From: Candidatus Thorarchaeota archaeon
GTDB taxonomy: Archaea > Asgardarchaeota > Thorarchaeia > Thorarchaeales > Thorarchaeaceae
NCBI GenBank assembly: GCA_011364905.1
Contig: RDNZ01000037.1
Coordinates: 1 to 29,146 of the forward strand
Length of the DNA stretch: 29,146 nucleotides
Direction of reading: 5' to 3'
Position numbers and translations under genes: made by a program. Every line of letters begins with the position of its first letter. Positions within the stretch are counted from its first letter, which is position 1. The notes beneath the pieces are model-generated. The model was not told the origin of the DNA, did no database searches, and saw only the letters and a program-made list of their open reading frames with translations. This document shows positions 1 to 20,025 of this stretch, one piece after another.

Positions 1-3000
1 CGATATTATCTCTGAAGAGGAATGTCTGAGTGGAGGTGTAGGCTTCATTACCAGCATTGTCAATTGCTACAATCTGATAGTTGAAGTTGTACCGTCCATC
101 CAGGGTGCGGGCGATATTAACCTCCCACATTCCAGATCCTTCATTGAAAGCCATTGAATAGTTCTGATTGTTGTCGATATCCCAAACCTTCACACCAGCG
201 AGATCGGAACCTCCACTGTCCGATACACTAGCCGCGATATGGACGTTATCTATGCCTGTAAGCGTGACTGCTGATTGCGTCGTTGCACCGAAAGAGGGAG
301 CCTCACCGTCGGACGACCCTGGAGAGATATATCCAACAAAAATCGGATCCACAGTTACAGCCCATCCATCCCATTGCGGAAATCCTAATACCGTATAGAA
401 TTGCGTTGATGAGATGGAAAATGTTGTCGCTGTTCGTCCTCCACCAGACACATATATTGCGCTCACGGCATCCAATGGGATAGTCTGTGCGTCCACGTTC
501 GTAGACATAGAGCTGTTCTTTGACCAATCATATGGAGCGCCACCCAGGCTCATCAGAGCCACATCGCTCAAGCTGCTAGTCATTGTAAAGTTATACGACG
601 ATGCCGCTTGATCGTTTGTCAGTGGATCTCCTAAGTCGTTAACATACATGGCATCCGCGGGTATTCCTCCACTGGTCATCACAGAGAGGTCGCTGTAGAA
701 AGCCACTGCAAGACTTCTGCCTTCAAGGACATCATCACCGCCAGGAGTATACACTTCCCAGTCGCCGACTGTGATGTCAAACTTGACTTTGGCAATACCA
801 CTTGAATCAGTTTCATTGATTTCACCGTTGAAATGGACATCGATTGTGAACTCGTCTGTCAAGCACTCAGTTGGCCGTTCATCAAAATCGCGGAAGTCTG
901 ATCCGTAGTATGCATCTTCATACCAATCGAAGTAAGTCTTGACACCAAATGGATAGACTTGACCAGTTACATTGTTGAAAGTGACGCCAAAGTCGATTGT
1001 TTCATCAACATGCCTGTACTCAGAGTCAGTTGTATTGGGATTACCCCAACCCACACCTGGTGTGACGAAACTTACTGTTTCAACGTCTACTGGCATCCAG
1101 TAGTGAGTAAGCTCAGCATCGCCAAGTTGCTCAGATGAGATGTCCATGAAATTGTCATAGTTTGTATCGTTCCATGCAAACATCCCGGCATACTGGTAGG
1201 CAAGATTAATGTCCATCAGTTCTGAGTAAGTGGCATTGATGCTTACATCAGTGCTATACTGCTCATCAAGCTCCCACCAGAGCCAGCTCCATTCTTGGGA
1301 GTTGTCTTCAACCCAATCCCAACCCTTTGTTTGAGCTTCATTGACTACATCCTGGTACGTTCTGTTTTCGAACATCCAAGAGATGTCCCAATAACCGGGT
1401 CTTGGATTTCCGAATGAGTCGAACAGGGTATTACTCAATGCGCTGTATTCTGCAGGGGTCAAAAATGTACCATCAGTATGAGTCCAGACATTTAGCTGAC
1501 TCCAGTCATATGTCCAGTTGAATGTGACCATTCCTGTAAATGAATGCAGATGGAACTCATCAGCATATGTTGATGAATCAGGTTCCCAAAAGATGCTCAC
1601 ATCCAGATACTGCTGAGTCACATTGTAGTAATCGGTGCTTGAATGGATCTCTCTCACATAGAACTGGTCCGCAGTAGTGTCAAGATTTCCGTCTAAATCA
1701 AGAGCTCCTGTTAACGGATCAACCGTCCATACATCGTTGTCCCACATCCCAGAAGCTGGAACTCCGTAGACGATAGCTTCTTGGGAGCGAATGATGGAAA
1801 TTGGCAGAGGTTGATAGTCCAATTTCATACTATAGCCCTGGACTTTATAGGCTTGGTATATGACCTCATTGGCCCCAAAGGCATGGTACTCTGTTCCACT
1901 TACGTTGAAAGCCCATGCAGGGAAGTTAAACTCGAAGCTTTCAGGAGTTCGTTGAAGTTCAACAATCTCGTATCTCGAGCCGTTGAGTATTGACTGCAAG
2001 AAGAAGTAGTCATATGGAACAATGTTATCCTCAATGCTTGTACGGGTCATCCATTGGTAATAGTAGTCATCCCATTCATAGTATGTGACATTGTATTGTG
2101 TGACATTCCGGTATTGACCTTCAAAGAAGAACTGCCCGTTCCACGGGTCTCCAATAACGTCCTCAACAAAAACAAGTTGAGTAGAATAGTCCATCCATCC
2201 TTGCCATCCTCGATGGTTGCCATAAATGTCAATCATGTAATATCGATCGAGAACGGGTTTGTAGAGGTTTGATGGCTCTTCGACTGGATGGTCCATCTTT
2301 GAGTAGAAGAATGTGCCATTGGATAGTGTGATGTTGAGGAATGTCGCTCTCCAGGTCTTGTTATAGGAGTACTCCTCTTCGCTAGTAGTTTGCACCCAGT
2401 CATAACCTCGACCATCATCCCATTCCTGTATACGACTGGATTCGTACGATCCATCATAAACTCCAGTCTGAAGATTGAGCCATCCGTCATCTACAAATTC
2501 GTAGGTTTGTGTATCTCGATGGCCAAATGCAACAGACCAGCCTTTCTGATGAACTTCCGGTACCCAGATGCTACCGTTAGCAACAGTGGTCCACGGGAGG
2601 TTCATGTAGTAGTCACCGTAGTCATAGTTCAATTTAAACTGCGGATCCATACTCCAATCCGTTAGATTGTAGACCATTCCCGTATCAATCTGATAGACAT
2701 CGTACCAATATCCAAAGATTGGTTCATACTCTTGCATTGGCAGCATTAGCGCCTCATAAGGAGTACCATCAACGATGGCATATTCCTTGGCGAAGTAGTG
2801 ACCTGTTGCTGGATTGTAGATATTCTCAAGATTGTTCAGGTCCCAAGGACTCCACATTGGAATTCCAGGTGCAGGAAGCTGATATTTAGTCCCTGAAACT
2901 AAGGTATAGACATGTGAGTTTGTCATGAATTGAGGAATAAAGAAATCTTGCGACAGGTAATTACCAGTCATCAGTTCCCATGGCCAATCAAGAGTGTAAA

Positions 3001-5941
3001 GCTTTCCATCAGTCTTATTCCAATAGTGATATCCCCATGTTGGGTCCCACCAGAACTCTACAGGTGCAAAAGTATCATTTTGATACATCACATAGTGGTC
3101 AGGACCAAGATAATCTGGCCAGCCTCTCATGTAGAATGGTTTTGTTCCGTTAAGGTAAGTCACATAGGTAAAGTCGACCTTTGAAACCTGAACCACGTCA
3201 CGGAACTCAGATGTCCACCCGCTCCAGAATGTATTCCATGACCCAGCAATTGACGATCCATTCAGGGCGATCATGAAGTATTGATCATCCATACCTGTGT
3301 AATGAGGACTGTCGCTCCATGCAAGGAAGGAAGTTCCAGCCAGTGGCAACGTGATATTGTATAGAACAGCCACACTGCCTGAGTAAACTTGGATTTCTGT
3401 CCCATTTGTGAATTTGATGAAGTACTCCTCCTTGTCAGTGACATGGTTGTACTCCGACCTTATGTACGATTCCCAATTGCTTTCAAGATCGGTCATAAGA
3501 TACGGTGCCAGACTAATCTCTTGACCGCCAATCACGACAAATGGCACTTTCTCTCGCTGATAGAAGTCTCCTGTCTGGTTGTTTCTGAAGATCTCAGCTT
3601 TCACTGGTTCCTCCATGTATAGCTTGGTACCATTGAGATAGCTATACACCGTATTCTCAGTCCATCCAAGAATGGTGTGTTCGCCCCAGCCGGATTCATA
3701 GTCCTCAACCCAATTGAGTTGGCCATAGAAGTATTGCCACCGCCATTCGAGCTGTGGCATTGTAGGGTCCGGAAGAATATCAAACTCAATCCTGAGGTCG
3801 TGCCCCAGCAAAATACGATTCAGATTTGCCACATCAAGCCAGTGAACAGGCATTCTCAAACTAGGAGACCCATCTGCTATCCAACCGGGAGCCCAATCAT
3901 TCGCTACAAAATCCCAAGTCTTTTCTTCCCAATGCCACTGATCTGAAATCAATGTCCACTGTGTCTCCCAGCGACCTGGCATGACCTCCACCGACACCCA
4001 ATCCCAGTAGTCACCCTGAGTCCACTGATTTCGAACTGTTCGATTGAAGACACTAACAGTGATCCCTCCGAGAGAATCGATGCGAATCTGAATTTCGATT
4101 TCAGACCACTGATGCCAGTCATTTGTGCCATCAAATCCCCAATCATCTTGATATGCTTTCATGAAGAAACCAATACCGTCAATCTCTTGGAAGTAATCAG
4201 CGCCGCCTTGCAACAATGACTTAACTGTGAAGGGTTCTGCGACATCTGTTTGAAACATCCAGTCTGGTTCATATGGTTCACCACCATGAGTCAGTGTTAC
4301 AATTGAAACAGGCGACTCAACTGCAAGTTCTTCTAGCAACTGATAAGCTGCTGCGGCCTCAGGAGAAGCTAGCGGTAATTGCGACTTTGGAGCTAAATTG
4401 CGTCCATGGATATCGCCGACCATTTCGCGGATATGCAGGGGCTGACTTTCATCTCCACTGGTTGGTAAAACATCTTCTCCTATATGACCTCTAAAGGTCA
4501 CGACAATGTTGCCATTGTCCCAATACATCCCGCTTGTTGCTTCATTAACGATGAAGGGGAGCGGGATGCTCCCATCGACGGGCCATGGTTCATACTCAAA
4601 CCATCTAACGTTTTGCCAATGCTCGCCATACTCATCGATAATCCTAGTGGTGTTTTCGTATTCATAGGCGAGTAAGGTTGTGAATGTGTCAGTTGAAAAA
4701 TCATAGACCACAGCTGCCCGTCCCCACGCCCAGTTCGTCCACATTGATCCACCGTCCCAGAAGTTGTACTCCTTTCCTACGTCGATGTAGGTAAATCCAT
4801 CCTCAAAGTGAAAACCTTCTTTCTGTGTGGTCCAGTTTACAGTCTTGGTTGCATTCCAGACATAGGTTTCAGATGCATCATCGTATTCCCAGGCACCTGT
4901 GACCTCCTCGGTCACAGTATATGGACCATAAACCCAGTTCTGAGTGTTAATTTTGCTGGGGATATCAAACAGAACAGTGACATTGTTCAGGACTGTCCCA
5001 TTATTAATTGTAGCAGTCATATTGAAATCCAGACCACGTGTGGCGGAGTATAAGGTGTTGCCATCATCGGAAATTCTCTCCCATTCATAGTATCCGCCAA
5101 CAGCTTGGTCTACAAGGAAATCGAAGGTAGTCCCAATGATTCTTCCACTATTGAACTCCTCAAATCTGCTCTCAGCAAGGGAGTTGAAGGACTCGTCTTG
5201 AACTCCACAAGAAACTACATAGAACCCACCAATTGTGGATGAATTGAATCTTAGCCTAACATTAGCCCAGTAGGATTCCGCACCTGCGATATATGATGTG
5301 TATCCTGAATCCATCTCAGCAAAAGGATTGACTTCTGGTCCAAAGACCATGTCAATGGTGAAATTTGATGGGAGACCAGTGGGAGGTCCCTCAGGCCAGC
5401 TTGCATTTGTCGAGCTATAGAGCATCCATTGTGAATCAGGAATGTGATAATAAACCATCCACATTATTGGAGAATTCCCCTTCATTTGGAAATCTCCTTC
5501 GCTGTTTGCTAGGGCAGACATATTGAAGTATTGACCCGCAAGGTACACTCCAGTTGGTGTTTGACCGCCTAGAGCGTTATATGGAATTTCTACTCTGAAG
5601 TCGACATATTCGTCTATAGCGATCTCATCTGACCACTTGATCAAACTAGAGTCTGTAGTGTTTCTAGTATGCCAGTTTACGGTTGGGCCAAACCGATATC
5701 GATCTGAACTCCAAGTATCTATCCAAGTGTCACTCTCAGTTCCAAGGTCCCAGTCAACCCTCGTATAGTTGTCAGGATAATCAGCTAGCATTAATGGATT
5801 CTCTTCAAGAGTCGGATAAGAATTCTCCATTGATTCTTCCGTCGATGCGAGAATTGCTGGAGGAGTCATGAAAAGTGATAAGGAGAATAAGACGAGTGAT
5901 ACAAGCGAGAACGCTTTTGTGACGAATTTCGTTGTGTACAC
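1..5941 (-). CDS. Giant secreted/cell-surface glycoprotein (>=1980 aa, 3' end outside the window) with an Ig-like module at the window edge
   Basis: Manual translation from GTG 5941 (MYTTKFVTKAFSLVSLVLFSLSLFMTPPAILAS..., signal-peptide-like) stays open to position 1, which is why it is absent from the ORF track. It is W/Y/D/E/T-rich with few Cys and about 40 N-x-S/T sequons. The last ~100 aa (DGEAPSF...AIDNAGNE) look like an Ig-like/Big domain. Confidence 0.9.
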   Translation of the reverse strand, partial: MYTTKFVTKAFSLVSLVLFSLSLFMTPPAILASTEESMENSYPTLEENPLMLADYPDNYTRVDWDLGTESDTWIDTWSSDRYRFGPTVNWHTRNTTDSSLIKWSDEIAIDEYVDFRVEIPYNALGGQTPTGVYLAGQYFNMSALANSEGDFQMKGNSPIMWMVYYHIPDSQWMLYSSTNASWPEGPPTGLPSNFTIDMVFGPEVNPFAEMDSGYTSYIAGAESYWANVRLRFNSSTIGGFYVVSCGVQDESFNSLAESRFEEFNSGRIIGTTFDFLVDQAVGGYYEWERISDDGNTLYSATRGLDFNMTATINNGTVLNNVTVLFDIPSKINTQNWVYGPYTVTEEVTGAWEYDDASETYVWNATKTVNWTTQKEGFHFEDGFTYIDVGKEYNFWDGGSMWTNWAWGRAAVVYDFSTDTFTTLLAYEYENTTRIIDEYGEHWQNVRWFEYEPWPVDGSIPLPFIVNEATSGMYWDNGNIVVTFRGHIGEDVLPTSGDESQPLHIREMVGDIHGRNLAPKSQLPLASPEAAAAYQLLEELAVESPVSIVTLTHGGEPYEPDWMFQTDVAEPFTVKSLLQGGADYFQEIDGIGFFMKAYQDDWGFDGTNDWHQWSEIEIQIRIDSLGGITVSVFNRTVRNQWTQGDYWDWVSVEVMPGRWETQWTLISDQWHWEEKTWDFVANDWAPGWIADGSPSLRMPVHWLDVANLNRILLGHDLRIEFDILPDPTMPQLEWRWQYFYGQLNWVEDYESGWGEHTILGWTENTVYSYLNGTKLYMEEPVKAEIFRNNQTGDFYQREKVPFVVIGGQEISLAPYLMTDLESNWESYIRSEYNHVTDKEEYFIKFTNGTEIQVYSGSVAVLYNITLPLAGTSFLAWSDSPHYTGMDDQYFMIALNGSSIAGSWNTFWSGWTSEFRDVVQVSKVDFTYVTYLNGTKPFYMRGWPDYLGPDHYVMYQNDTFAPVEFWWDPTWGYHYWNKTDGKLYTLDWPWELMTGNYLSQDFFIPQFMTNSHVYTLVSGTKYQLPAPGIPMWSPWDLNNLENIYNPATGHYFAKEYAIVDGTPYEALMLPMQEYEPIFGYWYDVYQIDTGMVYNLTDWSMDPQFKLNYDYGDYYMNLPWTTVANGSIWVPEVHQKGWSVAFGHRDTQTYEFVDDGWLNLQTGVYDGSYESSRIQEWDDGRGYDWVQTTSEEEYSYNKTWRATFLNITLSNGTFFYSKMDHPVEEPSNLYKPVLDRYYMIDIYGNHRGWQGWMDYSTQLVFVEDVIGDPWNGQFFFEGQYRNVTQYNVTYYEWDDYYYQWMTRTSIEDNIVPYDYFFLQSILNGSRYEIVELQRTPESFEFNFPAWAFNVSGTEYHAFGANEVIYQAYKVQGYSMKLDYQPLPISIIRSQEAIVYGVPASGMWDNDVWTVDPLTGALDLDGNLDTTADQFYVREIHSSTDYYNVTQQYLDVSIFWEPDSSTYADEFHLHSFTGMVTFNWTYDWSQLNVWTHTDGTFLTPAEYSALSNTLFDSFGNPRPGYWDISWMFENRTYQDVVNEAQTKGWDWVEDNSQEWSWLWWELDEQYSTDVSINATYSELMDINLAYQYAGMFAWNDTNYDNFMDISSEQLGDAELTHYWMPVDVETVSFVTPGVGWGNPNTTDSEYRHVDETIDFGVTFNNVTGQVYPFGVKTYFDWYEDAYYGSDFRDFDERPTECLTDEFTIDVHFNGEINETDSSGIAKVKFDITVGDWEVYTPGGDDVLEGRSLAVAFYSDLSVMTSGGIPADAMYVNDLGDPLTNDQAASSYNFTMTSSLSDVALMSLGGAPYDWSKNSSMSTNVDAQTIPLDAVSAIYVSGGGRTATTFSISSTQFYTVLGFPQWDGWAVTVDPIFVGYISPGSSDGEAPSFGATTQSAVTLTGIDNVHIAASVSDSGGSDLAGVKVWDIDNNQNYSMAFNEGSGMWEVNIARTLDGRYNFNYQIVAIDNAGNEAYTSTQTFLFRDNI

Positions 5942-6167: not shown

Positions 6168-8900
6168 CTATGGCGTGACCACCATTAAAAAGACAATTGG
6201 CGTTATAAAAGCCTCAATCAGGGCGGCTATTACCAGGAAGAACGCAATCAATATGTAAGTTCTCCAGGTTCTCTCGTCACCTAAGAGAGCACGTGTCTTG
6301 GAAGGAAATGACGCCCAATCTTCAGTTTCTATGGTTGGCCAAAGATCTTTCGCAATTCTTATGGCGGCAGCGGCAGCCACCAGAAAGGTCGGAATCTCTA
6401 CTATTGCATGCGGGATTATCCTCGCAAGAAACTCCCAGAGACCATTGCCGCCTCCTACTGACAGTTGAATGATTGCAATCCCCCCAATGGTCAATGCTGT
6501 AGACAATACCTCTGCGATTGCTAAGGACATCAAACTGAACTTGATATACGTGAGGAGAAAGTCTTCTCCTTTTCCTCTTCCTATCAACCTGTAGCCACCA
6601 GCTATCAGGAGTGGAAGCACGACTAGTGCTATCAATGTGAATTGATCATCATAGACAAAATACTCAGCCGTGAAAACGAAGACGAAAAGAGGTAACCACC
6701 ATACACCAGAACCTTTGCCTCTCATACCACGCAAAGCAACAATCACTCCGCAGATAAGGAATAAAGATCCAAAGACTACCAGTGCCCTGAGACCTAGTTG
6801 TGTTACAAAACCCCATCGAGGATCAAAAGGATTGAATAATCCTCTTCTTGCATCGTAGGTCGTCCAAACGAGGCAGGCTGATATTCCTATGACAACTGAA
6901 GACAATGTCCAAGTGCCAACCATCTTCTCCGTTTTTGTTTTCTCAACACCCACAAACCATAGGACAGCCGCCCAGAATATTGGACCAATGACTAGCATCA
7001 ACAAGACACGAACCATATTGTGCTCCGCAAAAACGAAAAACCATCCAAATGGATTAGCTCTATCCAAGAAGTTTCCTGGCGGAGGAAGTACCCCCTCGAG
7101 GCCATCTGGTTGCCCAATTTCACTGAGCAAGCCCTGAAGAAGGTTAGTGACAAGAGCTGGATTTGCTATAATCACAGAAGTAATCCATACTCCCAGAATC
7201 GATACAATAAGGCCACCAAAGAACATGATGGCGGATTGAATCAAATCACGTTTGTGCACGCTGAGGAGTGGTCCAGCTTTCTCTCCAATGGTTTCCCGCC
7301 AGCTCTCTCTATACTTGAAGAAGTAAAGGATGAAGAGTGTGCTGAATACGAAGATTGGCAAGTTGAGGATGAACTGAGAAGCCAAACGCGCCCACTGTTG
7401 ATCTGCAGATGGAAGTTCAAGAACTGGTCGCAGTCTATTGAATATCTCTCCAGCATATGTTGCAGGAGTCAGTTTGAAGGAAACAATATAGTCCAAACCT
7501 GGAAACACATAATATGTCACCATGGATAGAGTCGCACCAGAAAAGAGTGCAAATGTTTCGATTCCGCCTCCGGTTCGTTTCCATACGTAGTGGCCTAGCA
7601 CTCCAAGAACTATTATCATAACAAAAGGTATCGCGAGCAGCAACAGCAACCAGATTGTTTCTCCTATCATCTGGGGATTGCTTATGGGATTGTTTAAAAC
7701 ACCTATAATGAATTCATCATCAACATCTCTGGGGAAGAAACGAAGGAGCCCGCGCCCAAAAGAGTAGTTCAAAGTTGCGGCAAACACTGCAGCAACAAAT
7801 GCCCCGGTAACTACTAATCCAGTTCCAATTCCAGCTCCAATATTCTTCAGAGCACCACCAAAATTCAATTCAGACAACTTTAACTTTCCTTTCGTCAGTG
7901 AGTCAAATGTCTTCTTGTAGAGAACAACAGCAAAATCCTCAACGAGTGGAAGAATCAGGATGGCAAAGATAATGGGAGGTACAGCATAGATGATTCCTGT
8001 GCTGTAGTAAGCCAAAAGTACATTGACAATTTCCGTAACAGGAACACCAGAAGTAAATGCCTGAAACACTTGTAATCCAACAAAACCAAATGTTAGGATG
8101 ATGTTGAGCCTAAAGAACCAGCCTAGCACTCCACGCATCATCTCTCCGCCAATGTCTCGATTTCCAAGACGGAGACCAGCCCCTTTGGCAATACGATTTG
8201 AAGCAGGATATCCAAATCTGTAAATCCAAGTCAGGAAGATCAAAATGTTCCACAGATACACATTTGGTGCTTGACCTCCAACGAAAGCAGGAATACTTCC
8301 AACGTAAATGGAAATCGATGGTACCAGTGTTGCGAGACCGATGATAAGATAGTCTCTCCATGCATCTCGCCATGCACGACTCTGAACCTCAGGATTCAAA
8401 GGCTGCGGCTCAAGGCCTTCGAATCGGATGTTTGATAATCGGTCGCCAAAACCAGTGTATCCATCACTCTCAGGTTCTTTTTTCGTAATGCTCCGTATAA
8501 CATTCTTGAATCTCATCTTTAGTGGATCTTGAAGTGCTAATTTCGCTGCAAGGACAAACATTCCAAAAAGCACAGCAAAGAAAGACACCATAACCCAGAT
8601 TAGATATTCCTGAAGAGATGTCACGAAGTGGAACAACATGTCTGTGAGGAGAAGCCACGATAAGACGCGAGTATCAACAAAGGGATCGAAGCCACCGCCT
8701 ACATCAACTGATAGGCGATAAATATTCAGCAAGAAGTATGTTACAGTCTTCAAGTACATTAAAACAATGAAAGCCTCAATGAACTTACTCTTTCGTTTTC
8801 CAAAGAAGAGTAGATACACCAACGTAACAACAAGAGGGGGTACGAACTCAAACATGATAGTGAGAAGCGTGAGGTCTCCTAGCGCCATTTCAATAACCAC
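6168..8900 (-). CDS. Large polytopic membrane protein with C-terminal stage II sporulation protein M (SpoIIM)-like domain
   Basis: 910-aa ORF with roughly 20 hydrophobic segments. The C-terminal IIPHAIVEIP...VIAALIEAFITP matches the SpoIIM family PHGxxE...AAxxExxxTP signature. The start could be ATG 8888. Confidence 0.8.
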   Translation of the reverse strand: MVIEMALGDLTLLTIMFEFVPPLVVTLVYLLFFGKRKSKFIEAFIVLMYLKTVTYFLLNIYRLSVDVGGGFDPFVDTRVLSWLLLTDMLFHFVTSLQEYLIWVMVSFFAVLFGMFVLAAKLALQDPLKMRFKNVIRSITKKEPESDGYTGFGDRLSNIRFEGLEPQPLNPEVQSRAWRDAWRDYLIIGLATLVPSISIYVGSIPAFVGGQAPNVYLWNILIFLTWIYRFGYPASNRIAKGAGLRLGNRDIGGEMMRGVLGWFFRLNIILTFGFVGLQVFQAFTSGVPVTEIVNVLLAYYSTGIIYAVPPIIFAILILPLVEDFAVVLYKKTFDSLTKGKLKLSELNFGGALKNIGAGIGTGLVVTGAFVAAVFAATLNYSFGRGLLRFFPRDVDDEFIIGVLNNPISNPQMIGETIWLLLLLAIPFVMIIVLGVLGHYVWKRTGGGIETFALFSGATLSMVTYYVFPGLDYIVSFKLTPATYAGEIFNRLRPVLELPSADQQWARLASQFILNLPIFVFSTLFILYFFKYRESWRETIGEKAGPLLSVHKRDLIQSAIMFFGGLIVSILGVWITSVIIANPALVTNLLQGLLSEIGQPDGLEGVLPPPGNFLDRANPFGWFFVFAEHNMVRVLLMLVIGPIFWAAVLWFVGVEKTKTEKMVGTWTLSSVVIGISACLVWTTYDARRGLFNPFDPRWGFVTQLGLRALVVFGSLFLICGVIVALRGMRGKGSGVWWLPLFVFVFTAEYFVYDDQFTLIALVVLPLLIAGGYRLIGRGKGEDFLLTYIKFSLMSLAIAEVLSTALTIGGIAIIQLSVGGGNGLWEFLARIIPHAIVEIPTFLVAAAAAIRIAKDLWPTIETEDWASFPSKTRALLGDERTWRTYILIAFFLVIAALIEAFITPIVFLMVVTP

Positions 8901-18034: not shown

Positions 18035-18772
18035 ATGGATGACGAATGTGCTCAATGGGAACGCTTGGCCAACGAGTTTCTTGAGGCTGAAAAGTACTAT
18101 CAAGCTGCAAACCAATTCAAGAATGCAGCAAGCTGCTATCTTGACAGAGTGCATGAGATGACCACAAAAGCAGCTGAATACTATCACATGTATGCTGAAG
18201 AACGGGTAGAGAAGGACGACCATAGAGCTGCTGCTACGGCCTACCTTGAAGCTGCGACGCAATATCGACAAGTTAGTGATTTTTCCACAGCATTGACCCT
18301 CTATGAGAATGCGGCAAAAGAGGCGCTTCTTGAGAAAATGACTGAAACTGCAGCTCAAGCTTACTTGTGGGCAGCCTATTCCTGTCATAGGACAGGGAAC
18401 CGCGAATATTTCCTGACTGCCGCCGAGAACATGGGAGACCTCTATGATAAGGCTGCTAACAAGGCTATAGATGATGGGAATGCTGAAAGAGCGGTAATCA
18501 ATCTATCATTGGCCGCGATGGGTTTTGCCACGATTGAAAAGACTGCAAAAGCCAAAGAACTCATAGAAAAGGCGAAACAGATCATCACCAAAACAAGATG
18601 GGAGTGGCTACAGACCCTCTTATCGTTCAGCAATGCTCTGGCAGAGAATGACCTCGATGAAGCCGAAGACATGCTCACAGTCTTTGAGGAAGAGGAGGCA
18701 ATTGAGCAGGTTATGGGAGCTTGCCTTAGTATCAGGTCTGAGATTGAGAGGAAGAAGAAACGGAAGTCATAA
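18035..18772 (+). CDS. All-helical TPR/SNAP (soluble NSF attachment protein)-like protein
   Basis: Repeated AA..Y..AA helices (YYQAANQFKNAASCY, HRAAATAYLEAATQY, ETAAQAYLWAAYSC) resemble the alpha/gamma-SNAP helical hairpins. Confidence 0.6.
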   Translation: MDDECAQWERLANEFLEAEKYYQAANQFKNAASCYLDRVHEMTTKAAEYYHMYAEERVEKDDHRAAATAYLEAATQYRQVSDFSTALTLYENAAKEALLEKMTETAAQAYLWAAYSCHRTGNREYFLTAAENMGDLYDKAANKAIDDGNAERAVINLSLAAMGFATIEKTAKAKELIEKAKQIITKTRWEWLQTLLSFSNALAENDLDEAEDMLTVFEEEEAIEQVMGACLSIRSEIERKKKRKS

Positions 18773-18774
18773 GC

Positions 18775-20025
18775 CTATCCTACTCGCACCATGGAAGTTT
18801 TCACTGCTTCGTCACCTGATCGCCCATCGACAACTTTTGCCGTTACAAGCTCCTCGCCTTGACCAACAGCTTTGACAAAAGTCTGCAAACGGACATTTTC
18901 TCCGCTTCCGAGAAAATTGATTGTTTTCGAATCAATGCCGAATGATGTTTCAAGGCCGTCAGAAAGAGCCACAGTCAACTGGATATTTTCTGCAGGTCCA
19001 TCTCCCTCGTTAAACACAGTTATTTCGAATATTGCTTCGTCACCAAGGTTACAGGATACTCGTTCTGGTTTTAGGTCCACTGCGATTTTGGATGGAGCTC
19101 TAGCAATGCTAAACTCGAGTTTGTTGGTGTGTTTGTTTACAAGTACTTTGTCGCCTTCAAGGGTCACCGTGAGAGGGCCTATAGTACCCTCACCACTGAG
19201 GACTGGTTTGAATTCAAGCAACCATGATTCCTCTTTGGCAGGAGTCTGTTTGTATTCAGGTTCTTTCACAATTATGACACTGTTAGATAGTGCCAGCCGG
19301 TGATCAACGATTTGGACTTCTGCAGGGCATTTGTATCTTAACTCAATCTCAAGCGGCGCCTTTACATTGACTTCTTTTTGTGGGGGACCGGCCCATTCCA
19401 ATAGAATCTCTGTATCAATTGCGAGTTTCGTTGAGTTAACTAGAAAGTCTATGAGGGGCCGCTCAGGATCATTGGGCTTAACGCTCTTTGCAGTCTTCTC
19501 AAATTCCTTTTTGGGGACATCTACTCCCTCACATAATATCCTCGTGCATATCTCAGCCAGTGCATACATCGGATCTATCTTCGATGACGAGTCTTTCAGT
19601 CGCTTCTCGGCTTTACGCACCAAGTTGGTGGCCGTCCCAAAGTTTCTGGCTGCTAGATATCCAATTATTGCTATTCCTAATGACCGATTGGATTCTCTCG
19701 ATTTCTTCTCTCTTTCCAGATGATCAGATGATTCAGAATAGAGATTACCAGCCTCGTCGTAACGACCCTCCTGTAGAAGACACTCAGCGGCAGCAACTTT
19801 CATTTCTGCGCATCGAATGTGGTCATTATTTTCTAATGCATAGATAGAAGCCTCTCGAAAGTATTTCACAGCAAAGTCCGTTTGCTCAACCTCACAGAAA
19901 CAACGAGCGGCTTTCTCGTACTCAACGCTTGCATAATCAGGATAACCATCCTCAATTTCGACGAGTGCCTTCTCAACGTGCTTCTTTGCTTTCTTTACAG
20001 GATCAGACTTCAGGAAATTGAACAT
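18775..20025 (-). CDS. SNAP/TPR-like alpha-solenoid fused to two Ig-like beta-sandwich domains
   Basis: The N-terminal ~200 aa are helical (PDYASVEYEKAARCF, YDEAGNLYSES). The C-terminal half is beta-rich (FKPVLSGEGTIGPLTVT; ITVFNEGDGPAENIQL...LGSGE), CARDB/BatD/TRAPP-Ig-like. No signal peptide. Confidence 0.6.
   Translation of the reverse strand: MFNFLKSDPVKKAKKHVEKALVEIEDGYPDYASVEYEKAARCFCEVEQTDFAVKYFREASIYALENNDHIRCAEMKVAAAECLLQEGRYDEAGNLYSESSDHLEREKKSRESNRSLGIAIIGYLAARNFGTATNLVRKAEKRLKDSSSKIDPMYALAEICTRILCEGVDVPKKEFEKTAKSVKPNDPERPLIDFLVNSTKLAIDTEILLEWAGPPQKEVNVKAPLEIELRYKCPAEVQIVDHRLALSNSVIIVKEPEYKQTPAKEESWLLEFKPVLSGEGTIGPLTVTLEGDKVLVNKHTNKLEFSIARAPSKIAVDLKPERVSCNLGDEAIFEITVFNEGDGPAENIQLTVALSDGLETSFGIDSKTINFLGSGENVRLQTFVKAVGQGEELVTAKVVDGRSGDEAVKTSMVRVG

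Follow-up and report, generated by a model that had tools for sequence, protein, structure and literature searches.

Whether archaea of the Asgard group carry relatives of the SNAP adaptors, which with NSF and the SNAREs form the core of eukaryotic vesicle fusion, is the question raised by a pair of genes in a Candidatus Thorarchaeota genome (assembly GCA_011364905.1, contig RDNZ01000037.1, positions 1 to 29,146, the whole stretch of DNA that was analysed and hereafter the window). Gene A lies at positions 18,035 to 18,772 on the forward strand and encodes 245 amino acids (aa) according to the open reading frame (ORF) call, and gene B lies at positions 18,775 to 20,025, stop codon included, on the reverse strand and encodes 416 aa. 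A preliminary description of the locus had reported convergent genes with stop codons 2 nucleotides (nt) apart, and both the ORF coordinates and direct reading of the sequence bear this out, with the stop of A (TAA, 18,770 to 18,772) and the stop of B (cta on the forward strand, 18,775 to 18,777) separated by the dinucleotide gc (18,773 to 18,774). Both are real genes, since they are strongly conserved, with well over 100 homologue clusters each, nearly all labelled Thorarchaeota, at identities of 63–98% (A) and 52–98% (B). The reading that we favour, at a probability of roughly 60%, is that A and B are soluble proteins belonging to the SNAP branch among TPR-like helical-repeat proteins, B joining a shortened SNAP-like domain to two Ig-like sandwiches in an architecture conserved in several Asgard families, and A being free-standing and more diverged.

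The predicted folds differ between the two proteins. The AlphaFold2 model of A (predicted local distance difference test, pLDDT, 95.2) is all-helical with 12 helices, and that of B (pLDDT 91.7) has 10 helices in residues 9–204 followed by sandwiches at 206–310 and 314–415. On the reverse strand, B thus comprises a SNAP-like helical domain (residues 1–205, 19,411 to 20,025), delimited by profiles, the model and structure matches, a first Ig-like β-sandwich (residues 206–311, 19,093 to 19,410), with model strands spanning 206–308 and a G283-P284 pair, and a second Ig-like β-sandwich, probably of the MG/CARDB/DUF11 type (residues 312–416, 18,778 to 19,092), assigned from Pfam and structural alignment with VIA. 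The earlier picture of two proteins built throughout from helical hairpins therefore stands for A and for residues 1–205 of B, and falls for residues 206–416. No signal peptide or membrane segment was found in either sequence, where the Kyte-Doolittle 19-residue mean peaks at ~1.1 with no hydrophobic stretch, and both proteins are acidic (isoelectric points 4.8 for A and 5.2 for B); these properties are consistent with the cytoplasmic location proposed for both, which is probable on sequence grounds.

The resemblance of B to the N-terminus of gamma-SNAP, which the preliminary description had put forward, is recovered by a HMMER search of the PDB that aligns B ...GYPDYASVEYEKAARCF with gamma-SNAP ...KPDY-DSAASEYAKAAVAF; the B stretch of the same motif alignment is also given as ...PDYASVEYEKAARCF, against gamma-SNAP ...PDY-DSAASEYAKAAVAF. 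What has to be decided is whether such likeness is particular to SNAPs, or whether A and B are ordinary TPR proteins, B being a TPR domain fused to CARDB/DUF11 domains, in which a hairpin subtype or convergence imitates a SNAP. This second view gains from the Pfam SNAP model (PF14938), which cross-matches bacterial and archaeal TPR proteins, and from bacterial BamD+DUF11 proteins that have the same architecture as B. Single-sequence matches to the Pfam model (25.5 bits for A and 21.5 bits for B, at a cut-off of 25) were rejected as evidence, the model having proved non-specific on controls, and because such matches are insufficient we relied on profiles and on control proteins.

For the helical domain of B, the profile searches single out SNAPs. 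With a profile built from thorarchaeal B sequences alone, gamma-SNAP was the sole PDB match below an E value of 0.1 (E 9e-4), and with an Asgard-wide alignment of full-length B (profile A3) gamma-SNAP reached 9e-11 and Sec17 2e-8. That the signal grows with profile diversity, from 9e-4 to 9e-11, is what homology predicts. An Asgard-wide profile of the helical domain alone (A4) retrieved gamma-SNAP at 2e-10, Sec17 at 5e-7 and alpha-SNAP at 5e-6, with other natural TPR proteins at 1e-4 or worse, so that SNAPs outscore any other natural TPR protein by 1e2 to 1e6, varying with the SNAP. Designed consensus-TPR arrays do reach 1e-7 with A4, which speaks for the ordinary-TPR view, but only through the summing of many weak repeats.

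Searched against 1.84e9 representative proteins, A4 returned its own family first and then two further classes, namely long multi-repeat TPR arrays with 5–12 matched stretches, and proteins of ~290 aa with up to 175 contiguous positions matched (E 7e-17 to 3e-11). All 10 of the ~290-aa proteins tested are canonical SNAPs (68–299 bits on PF14938 over the full model), and among the best 150 matches canonical SNAPs are the only proteins of that length. Aligning A4 with a SNAP alignment in hhalign gave 99.1% probability and an E value of 6e-19 over 175 columns, B residues 7–183 corresponding to SNAP 96–272 of 296; the SNAP alignment was here drawn from A4's own matches, and the PDB results are independent of that choice. 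The match is contiguous over ~175 positions and extends into the non-repeat C-terminal bundle of SNAP, which argues against the ordinary-TPR view. The helical domain of B corresponds to roughly the final two-thirds of a SNAP, the C-terminal helical bundle included. SNAP is moreover the commonest Pfam family in the B family (11 of 19 members).

Structural comparison with VIA points the same way. The best match of the B helical domain is Sec17 from the 20S complex (Z 18.3, root-mean-square deviation (rmsd) 2.8 Å, 152 residues; also Z 17.2 over 185 residues), and gamma-SNAP superposes at 2.7 Å over 187 residues with a Z of 14.7. Pins and LGN, which share general TPR-like hairpins with both window proteins and with the TPR_12 family, score Z 15–16.7 against B and at best 14.1 against A, and this closeness can be counted for the ordinary-TPR view; they superpose on B more poorly, however, at 4.6–6.3 Å against 2.7–2.8 Å for gamma-SNAP and Sec17, and are not preferred by the profiles of A or B.

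The controls behave differently from the window proteins. One control, a TPR protein of 292 aa encoded in the same genome, exceeds both A and B on Pfam SNAP (35.9 bits) but reaches 94.9 bits on TPR_12; in the PDB it matches LGN/Pins, and no SNAP appears down to E 0.01. Likewise, the top 'SNAP' match in a scan of the Asgard phylum is a TPR_12 protein (151 bits on TPR_12 versus 84), for which consensus-TPR and LGN come first in the PDB, and ordinary TPR_12 proteins that touch Pfam SNAP have LGN and consensus-TPR as their best PDB matches, with SNAPs absent or far lower. Because the controls prefer LGN and consensus-TPR, the preference of A and B for SNAPs is specific; generic TPR proteins are far stronger on TPR_12, and the orthologues of A and B have SNAP as their sole or commonest Pfam family. 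Taken with the profiles and structures, this makes the ordinary-TPR view quite unlikely, and the earlier suggestion that the pair is SNAP-like rather than generic TPR is upheld strongly for the helical domain of B and moderately for A.

For A the case is weaker than for B, with consistent evidence that supports a SNAP relationship moderately. SNAP is its top Pfam family and the sole one below E 0.1, and it is the only Pfam family that A orthologues match. The A profile has alpha-SNAP as its best PDB match (E 4e-4) and aligns with a canonical SNAP profile in hhalign at 95.8% probability (E 8e-9), A residues 5–117 corresponding to SNAP 36–132. Foldseek placed Sec17 first for the A model (E 4e-5), with alpha-SNAP and the SNAP-like HAP40 (E 1e-4) also leading, and VIA gave Sec17 a Z of 15.6 over 219 residues, gamma-SNAP 14.9 over 205 and LGN 14.1. 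The profiles of A and of the B helical domain also match each other (94.4% probability, E 9e-8, in a comparison of the hhalign type).

Several observations weigh against this reading of the pair. Hairpins of the SNAP type are not confined to SNAPs: of 14 prokaryote control genomes, 4 contain PF14938 matches, and at least 4 further ORFs of the window's own genome match the model too; taken singly, the window proteins lie at or below the Pfam cut-off; and long archaeal TPR arrays (84–123 bits on PF14938) equal or exceed SNAPs in summed B-profile score. Internal repeats leave the register of B on SNAP ambiguous (8–102, 24–188 or 96–272), and the structural margin of A for SNAPs over LGN is just ~1–1.5 Z. 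In addition, the genes beside A and B are housekeeping genes that differ between lineages, and the analysis yielded no partner, interface or ligand for either protein. Since long archaeal repeat arrays contain such hairpins too, kinship to a SNAP branch within the TPR-like repeats is a safer claim than orthology.

Several SNAP-type hairpin blocks occur within long repeat proteins (P0266, 1312 aa; P0268, 751 aa; P0276, 494 aa; and L041-L044), one of which also has BatD/DUF11-like and DUF835 domains, and frames of 1200–1370 aa of this type are common in one Asgard family. A 244-aa Asgard protein (L040:1456-2190, forward strand, genome G028) has equal scores for SNAP (68.9 bits) and for TPR_12 (67.1 bits), and its N-terminus gives a weak match to the MIT domain; it may be a candidate small SNAP-like adaptor. 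Finally, a 234-aa protein of Candidatus Heimdallarchaeota (P0253, JSV04_07670, on a 3.16 Mb contig) consists of the SNAP-like domain without Ig domains and matches the B-domain profile over its full length (E 9e-35); it represents a stand-alone form of the domain or else a split gene.

Does SNAP kinship imply SNAP function? The preliminary description had gone on to propose that A and B may act together as AAA-ATPase (Cdc48/NSF-like) adaptors in an archaeal membrane-remodelling system. Spelled out, such a working pair would recruit the ATPase to a coiled-coil substrate, as a forerunner of the NSF-SNAP-SNARE machinery. The SNAP-specific homology of both proteins favours this proposal. In SNAP and Sec17 an N-terminal hydrophobic loop inserts into the membrane, and a free acidic C-terminus with a conserved Leu activates NSF. 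The loop is absent from the B family, which has a 6-residue deletion opposite 'sfmkwk' of gamma-SNAP; in the other registers of B the alignments begin past the loop, and in A the profile alignment begins only at SNAP position 36. Neither protein has the free acidic Leu-bearing C-terminus: A ends in the basic ...ERKKKRKS (a KKKRKS tail), and in B the helical domain runs into the first Ig-like sandwich, so that Ig domains stand where the acidic Leu-bearing end would be. All of these weigh against the adaptor proposal.

The host genome was also searched for the cellular partners of SNAPs. No SNARE domain exceeded the cut-off (best 15 bits versus 26.8), in a genome that is only 81% complete and for motifs that are short and divergent. 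A CDC48_N search returned one ordinary Cdc48 (contig 26, near 27268) and no separate NSF; the CDC48_N-bearing Cdc48 would suit an adaptor pair, but Cdc48 is, to our knowledge, universal in archaea, and it is unlinked to the A-B locus. Bet3-type TRAPP genes, a further point in favour, are present in the genome on another contig (C57:106979-107368 and 109841-110218). On the same contig 57, at ~73.1-74.8 kb and ~33 kb from the Bet3 genes, the 292-aa TPR_12 protein used as a control (L002:1060-1938, reverse strand) directly adjoins a 233-aa Ras/Arf-like small GTPase (L002:2049-2750, reverse strand).

We assessed conservation of the pair in 301 Asgard genomes, 76 from the window's family, 1 from its sister family and 224 others. 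Gene A was present in 70 of the 76 own-family genomes and in the sister-family genome, with just three weak partial matches in the other 224, and among the sampled genomes it is thus found only in the order of the Thorarchaeia to which the window belongs. B, present in 72 of the 76 and in the sister-family genome, is an Asgard-wide family: at least 5 other Asgard families have full-length relatives of 412–442 aa that share its three-domain layout, and ten of the relatives in other families match by hmmsearch at E 1e-12 to 1e-31 over profile positions ~5–400, while the two weakest align over the Ig half only. The cultured Lokiarchaeia also encode B-like proteins. These other Asgards have B without A.

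Within the window's family the convergent arrangement is very stable: 70 genomes have A, and in 68 of these, across 16 genera, the matched ends lie within ~60 nt of each other, whereas the remaining two show gaps of ~0.2 and ~1.2 kb, the larger one in a single genus (L037:5847-7003, genome G063). Such adjacency favours an adaptor pair, yet it belongs to a wider syntenic block (HMG-CoA reductase - A - B - AlaX-like - Nre), and it is lost in the sister family (L036:5991-12714, genome G112), where both genes are on one strand and 6.7 kb, including the AlaX-like gene, separates A from B. The claim that the pair is conserved together accordingly holds within the family but is not diagnostic. Because of this block-wide synteny, the split in the sister family, the occurrence of B without A, and the fact that convergent genes cannot be transcribed together, A-B adjacency is weak evidence of joint function. 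A scan of the locus for bacterial-type promoters and terminators, which is not applicable to archaea, found no more sites than in shuffled sequence.

The gene neighbourhood was rejected as a clue to function, the neighbours being housekeeping genes that differ between lineages: glycyl-tRNA synthetase, HMG-CoA reductase, an AlaX-like protein, a PMT_2 glycosyltransferase and Nre in the window, and a family-3 glycosyltransferase, an M24 peptidase and a ferredoxin beside B in other Asgards. No AAA, GTPase or trafficking gene lies beside A or B in the lineages examined, and no neighbour is common across lineages. In one family outside the Thorarchaeia (L032:3814-5970, forward strand; L035:7616-9793, reverse strand), the B-like gene adjoins a conserved 718-aa protein without a Pfam match, with a small DUF5752 protein also beside it.

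Since the membrane loop, the NSF-activating C-terminus and detectable SNAREs are missing, A and B are not canonical SNAPs. Neither has the full-length, free-standing architecture of ~290 aa, the B domain having 10 helices in ~200 aa and A 12 helices in 245 aa, and no canonical full-length SNAP was found in the 301 genomes (best 58 bits over model positions 32–178). What they share with alpha-, beta- and gamma-SNAP and Sec17 is the antiparallel sheet of SNAP-type helical hairpins, the match of the B domain to the C-terminal helical bundle, and a soluble, acidic character; they differ in lacking the N-terminal hydrophobic loop and the free acidic Leu C-terminus, and in residing in an archaeon without detected SNAREs or NSF. 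With these parts absent, a single Cdc48 in the genome and no trafficking genes nearby, the proposed role as AAA-ATPase adaptors in membrane remodelling finds no support, and we regard a working adaptor pair as unlikely. Distinctly unlikely, too, is the related notion that the Asgard-wide B family and A, its thorarchaeal relative, share an ancestor with eukaryotic SNAPs and already serve as substrate adaptors of a Cdc48/NSF-type AAA ATPase on coiled-coil complexes; if true, a precursor of NSF-SNAP disassembly would have existed in archaea before SNARE-based fusion. The SNAP likeness is genuine and its mechanistic interpretation is unsupported: a trafficking role is unproven because A and B are without the parts by which SNAP works with NSF and SNAREs, and to connect them with membranes or with an AAA ATPase is speculative.

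The Ig-like half of B opens a further possibility, namely that B is a smaller protein related by descent or by function to the large TRAPP subunits (TRAPPC8-11, Trs120/130) or to adaptin appendages, in which a helical solenoid is likewise combined with C-terminal Ig-like domains, and that it works with the thorarchaeal Bet3-like TRAPP core. For the whole of B, the top Foldseek match is a large TRAPPII subunit (7u06_A, E 1.5e-10, 615 columns), a protein-language-model search of the Atlas lists TRAPPC11 (0.80) and TRAPPC8 (0.78) clusters, and a weak TRAPPC13_C match appears in 1 of 19 B-family members (E 1.5e-5) and a weak Alpha_adaptinC2 match in another; the Bet3 genes of the host would fit as well. 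The 7u06_A match, however, has a template modelling (TM) score of 0.31 and an rmsd of 19.8 Å, and on re-alignment with VIA it falls outside the top 50, i.e. below Z 11.2. The Atlas scores lie under the 0.9 threshold for a lead, no TRAPPC Pfam family matches the window protein even at E values up to 10, the Bet3 genes are on a different contig from A and B, and B occurs in Asgard families well outside the Thorarchaeia. Kinship to TRAPP large subunits is thus very improbable; having failed the VIA re-alignment and Pfam, it was rejected and kept as shared domain order only. Large TRAPP subunits and the bacterial BamD+DUF11 proteins do share with B the order of helical repeats followed by Ig-like sandwiches, but they are 2-3 times larger, superpose poorly and have no family-level sequence match to the window protein.

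The tandem Ig pair of B itself resembles, by Foldseek and VIA, the C-terminal barrels of transglutaminase and factor XIII, and alpha-2-macroglobulin. In the first sandwich, G283-P284 is invariant in the Asgard-wide alignment A3. The second falls short of the cut-offs by sequence (DUF11 22.6 bits, cut-off 24.6; TIGR01451 19.6 bits, cut-off 24), and VIA matches it to the MG domain of complement C3 and to alpha-2-macroglobulin (Z ~12-12.8, rmsd 2.2–2.4 Å over 100 residues). We know of no SNAP that carries Ig-like domains as B does.

The most likely interpretation of A and B is that they are a variant of the SNAP family serving as protein-binding scaffolds, a function that we infer from fold and kinship. 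A precedent for a SNAP fold without NSF is huntingtin-associated protein 40 (HAP40), a plain scaffold of SNAP-type fold that works without NSF or SNAREs, lacks Ig domains and is confined to eukaryotes. This animal SNAP-like TPR protein is among the top structural matches (Z 13.1, rmsd 2.6 Å for B) but has no sequence-level link to the B profiles (E 0.4–0.6). On a scaffold model, the groove of the SNAP-like domain would hold a long helical or coiled-coil partner, much as SNAPs bind SNARE bundles, the Ig pair of B would offer a second docking surface and so make B bivalent, and A might pack beside B on the same partner, like the side-by-side SNAP protomers of the 20S complex.

No description of an Asgard SNAP, Sec17 or PF14938 protein was found in the literature searched. 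Asgard trafficking proteins listed there comprise ESCRT, TRAPP, COPII, adaptin domains, small GTPases and prototypic SNAREs, with no SNAP; Eme et al. 2023 (PMC10307638), for example, list ESCRT, TRAPP, COPII, adaptin domains and GTPases, and SNAP is not among them. A conserved Asgard-wide protein with a specifically SNAP-like helical domain would extend the history of the SNAP fold into the archaea, and B, as a soluble and easily expressed target, would allow one to ask what a SNAP-like domain bound before there were SNAREs. Should it prove to be a scaffold only, it would indicate that the SNAP fold is reusable outside the NSF cycle, as HAP40 shows.

A minor feature of the B family is its N-terminus, which Asgard-wide (alignment A3) carries a short, conserved hydrophobic-then-basic motif ending in DP, at 20,005 to 20,025 in the window (B residues 1–7). 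It reads MFNFLKSDP in the window protein, while other members have MSFIRRILGVDP or MGLFSKDP; the first helix, rich in lysine, comes next, and residues 1–21 give a weak DUF6435 match in 5 of 19 family members. The motif may be a docking or membrane-touching peptide. Elsewhere in the window, a very long ORF of 1980 aa (2 to 5,941, reverse strand) runs off the window end, and next to it lies a 910-aa ORF (6,168 to 8,900, reverse strand) whose C-terminus matches SpoIIM.

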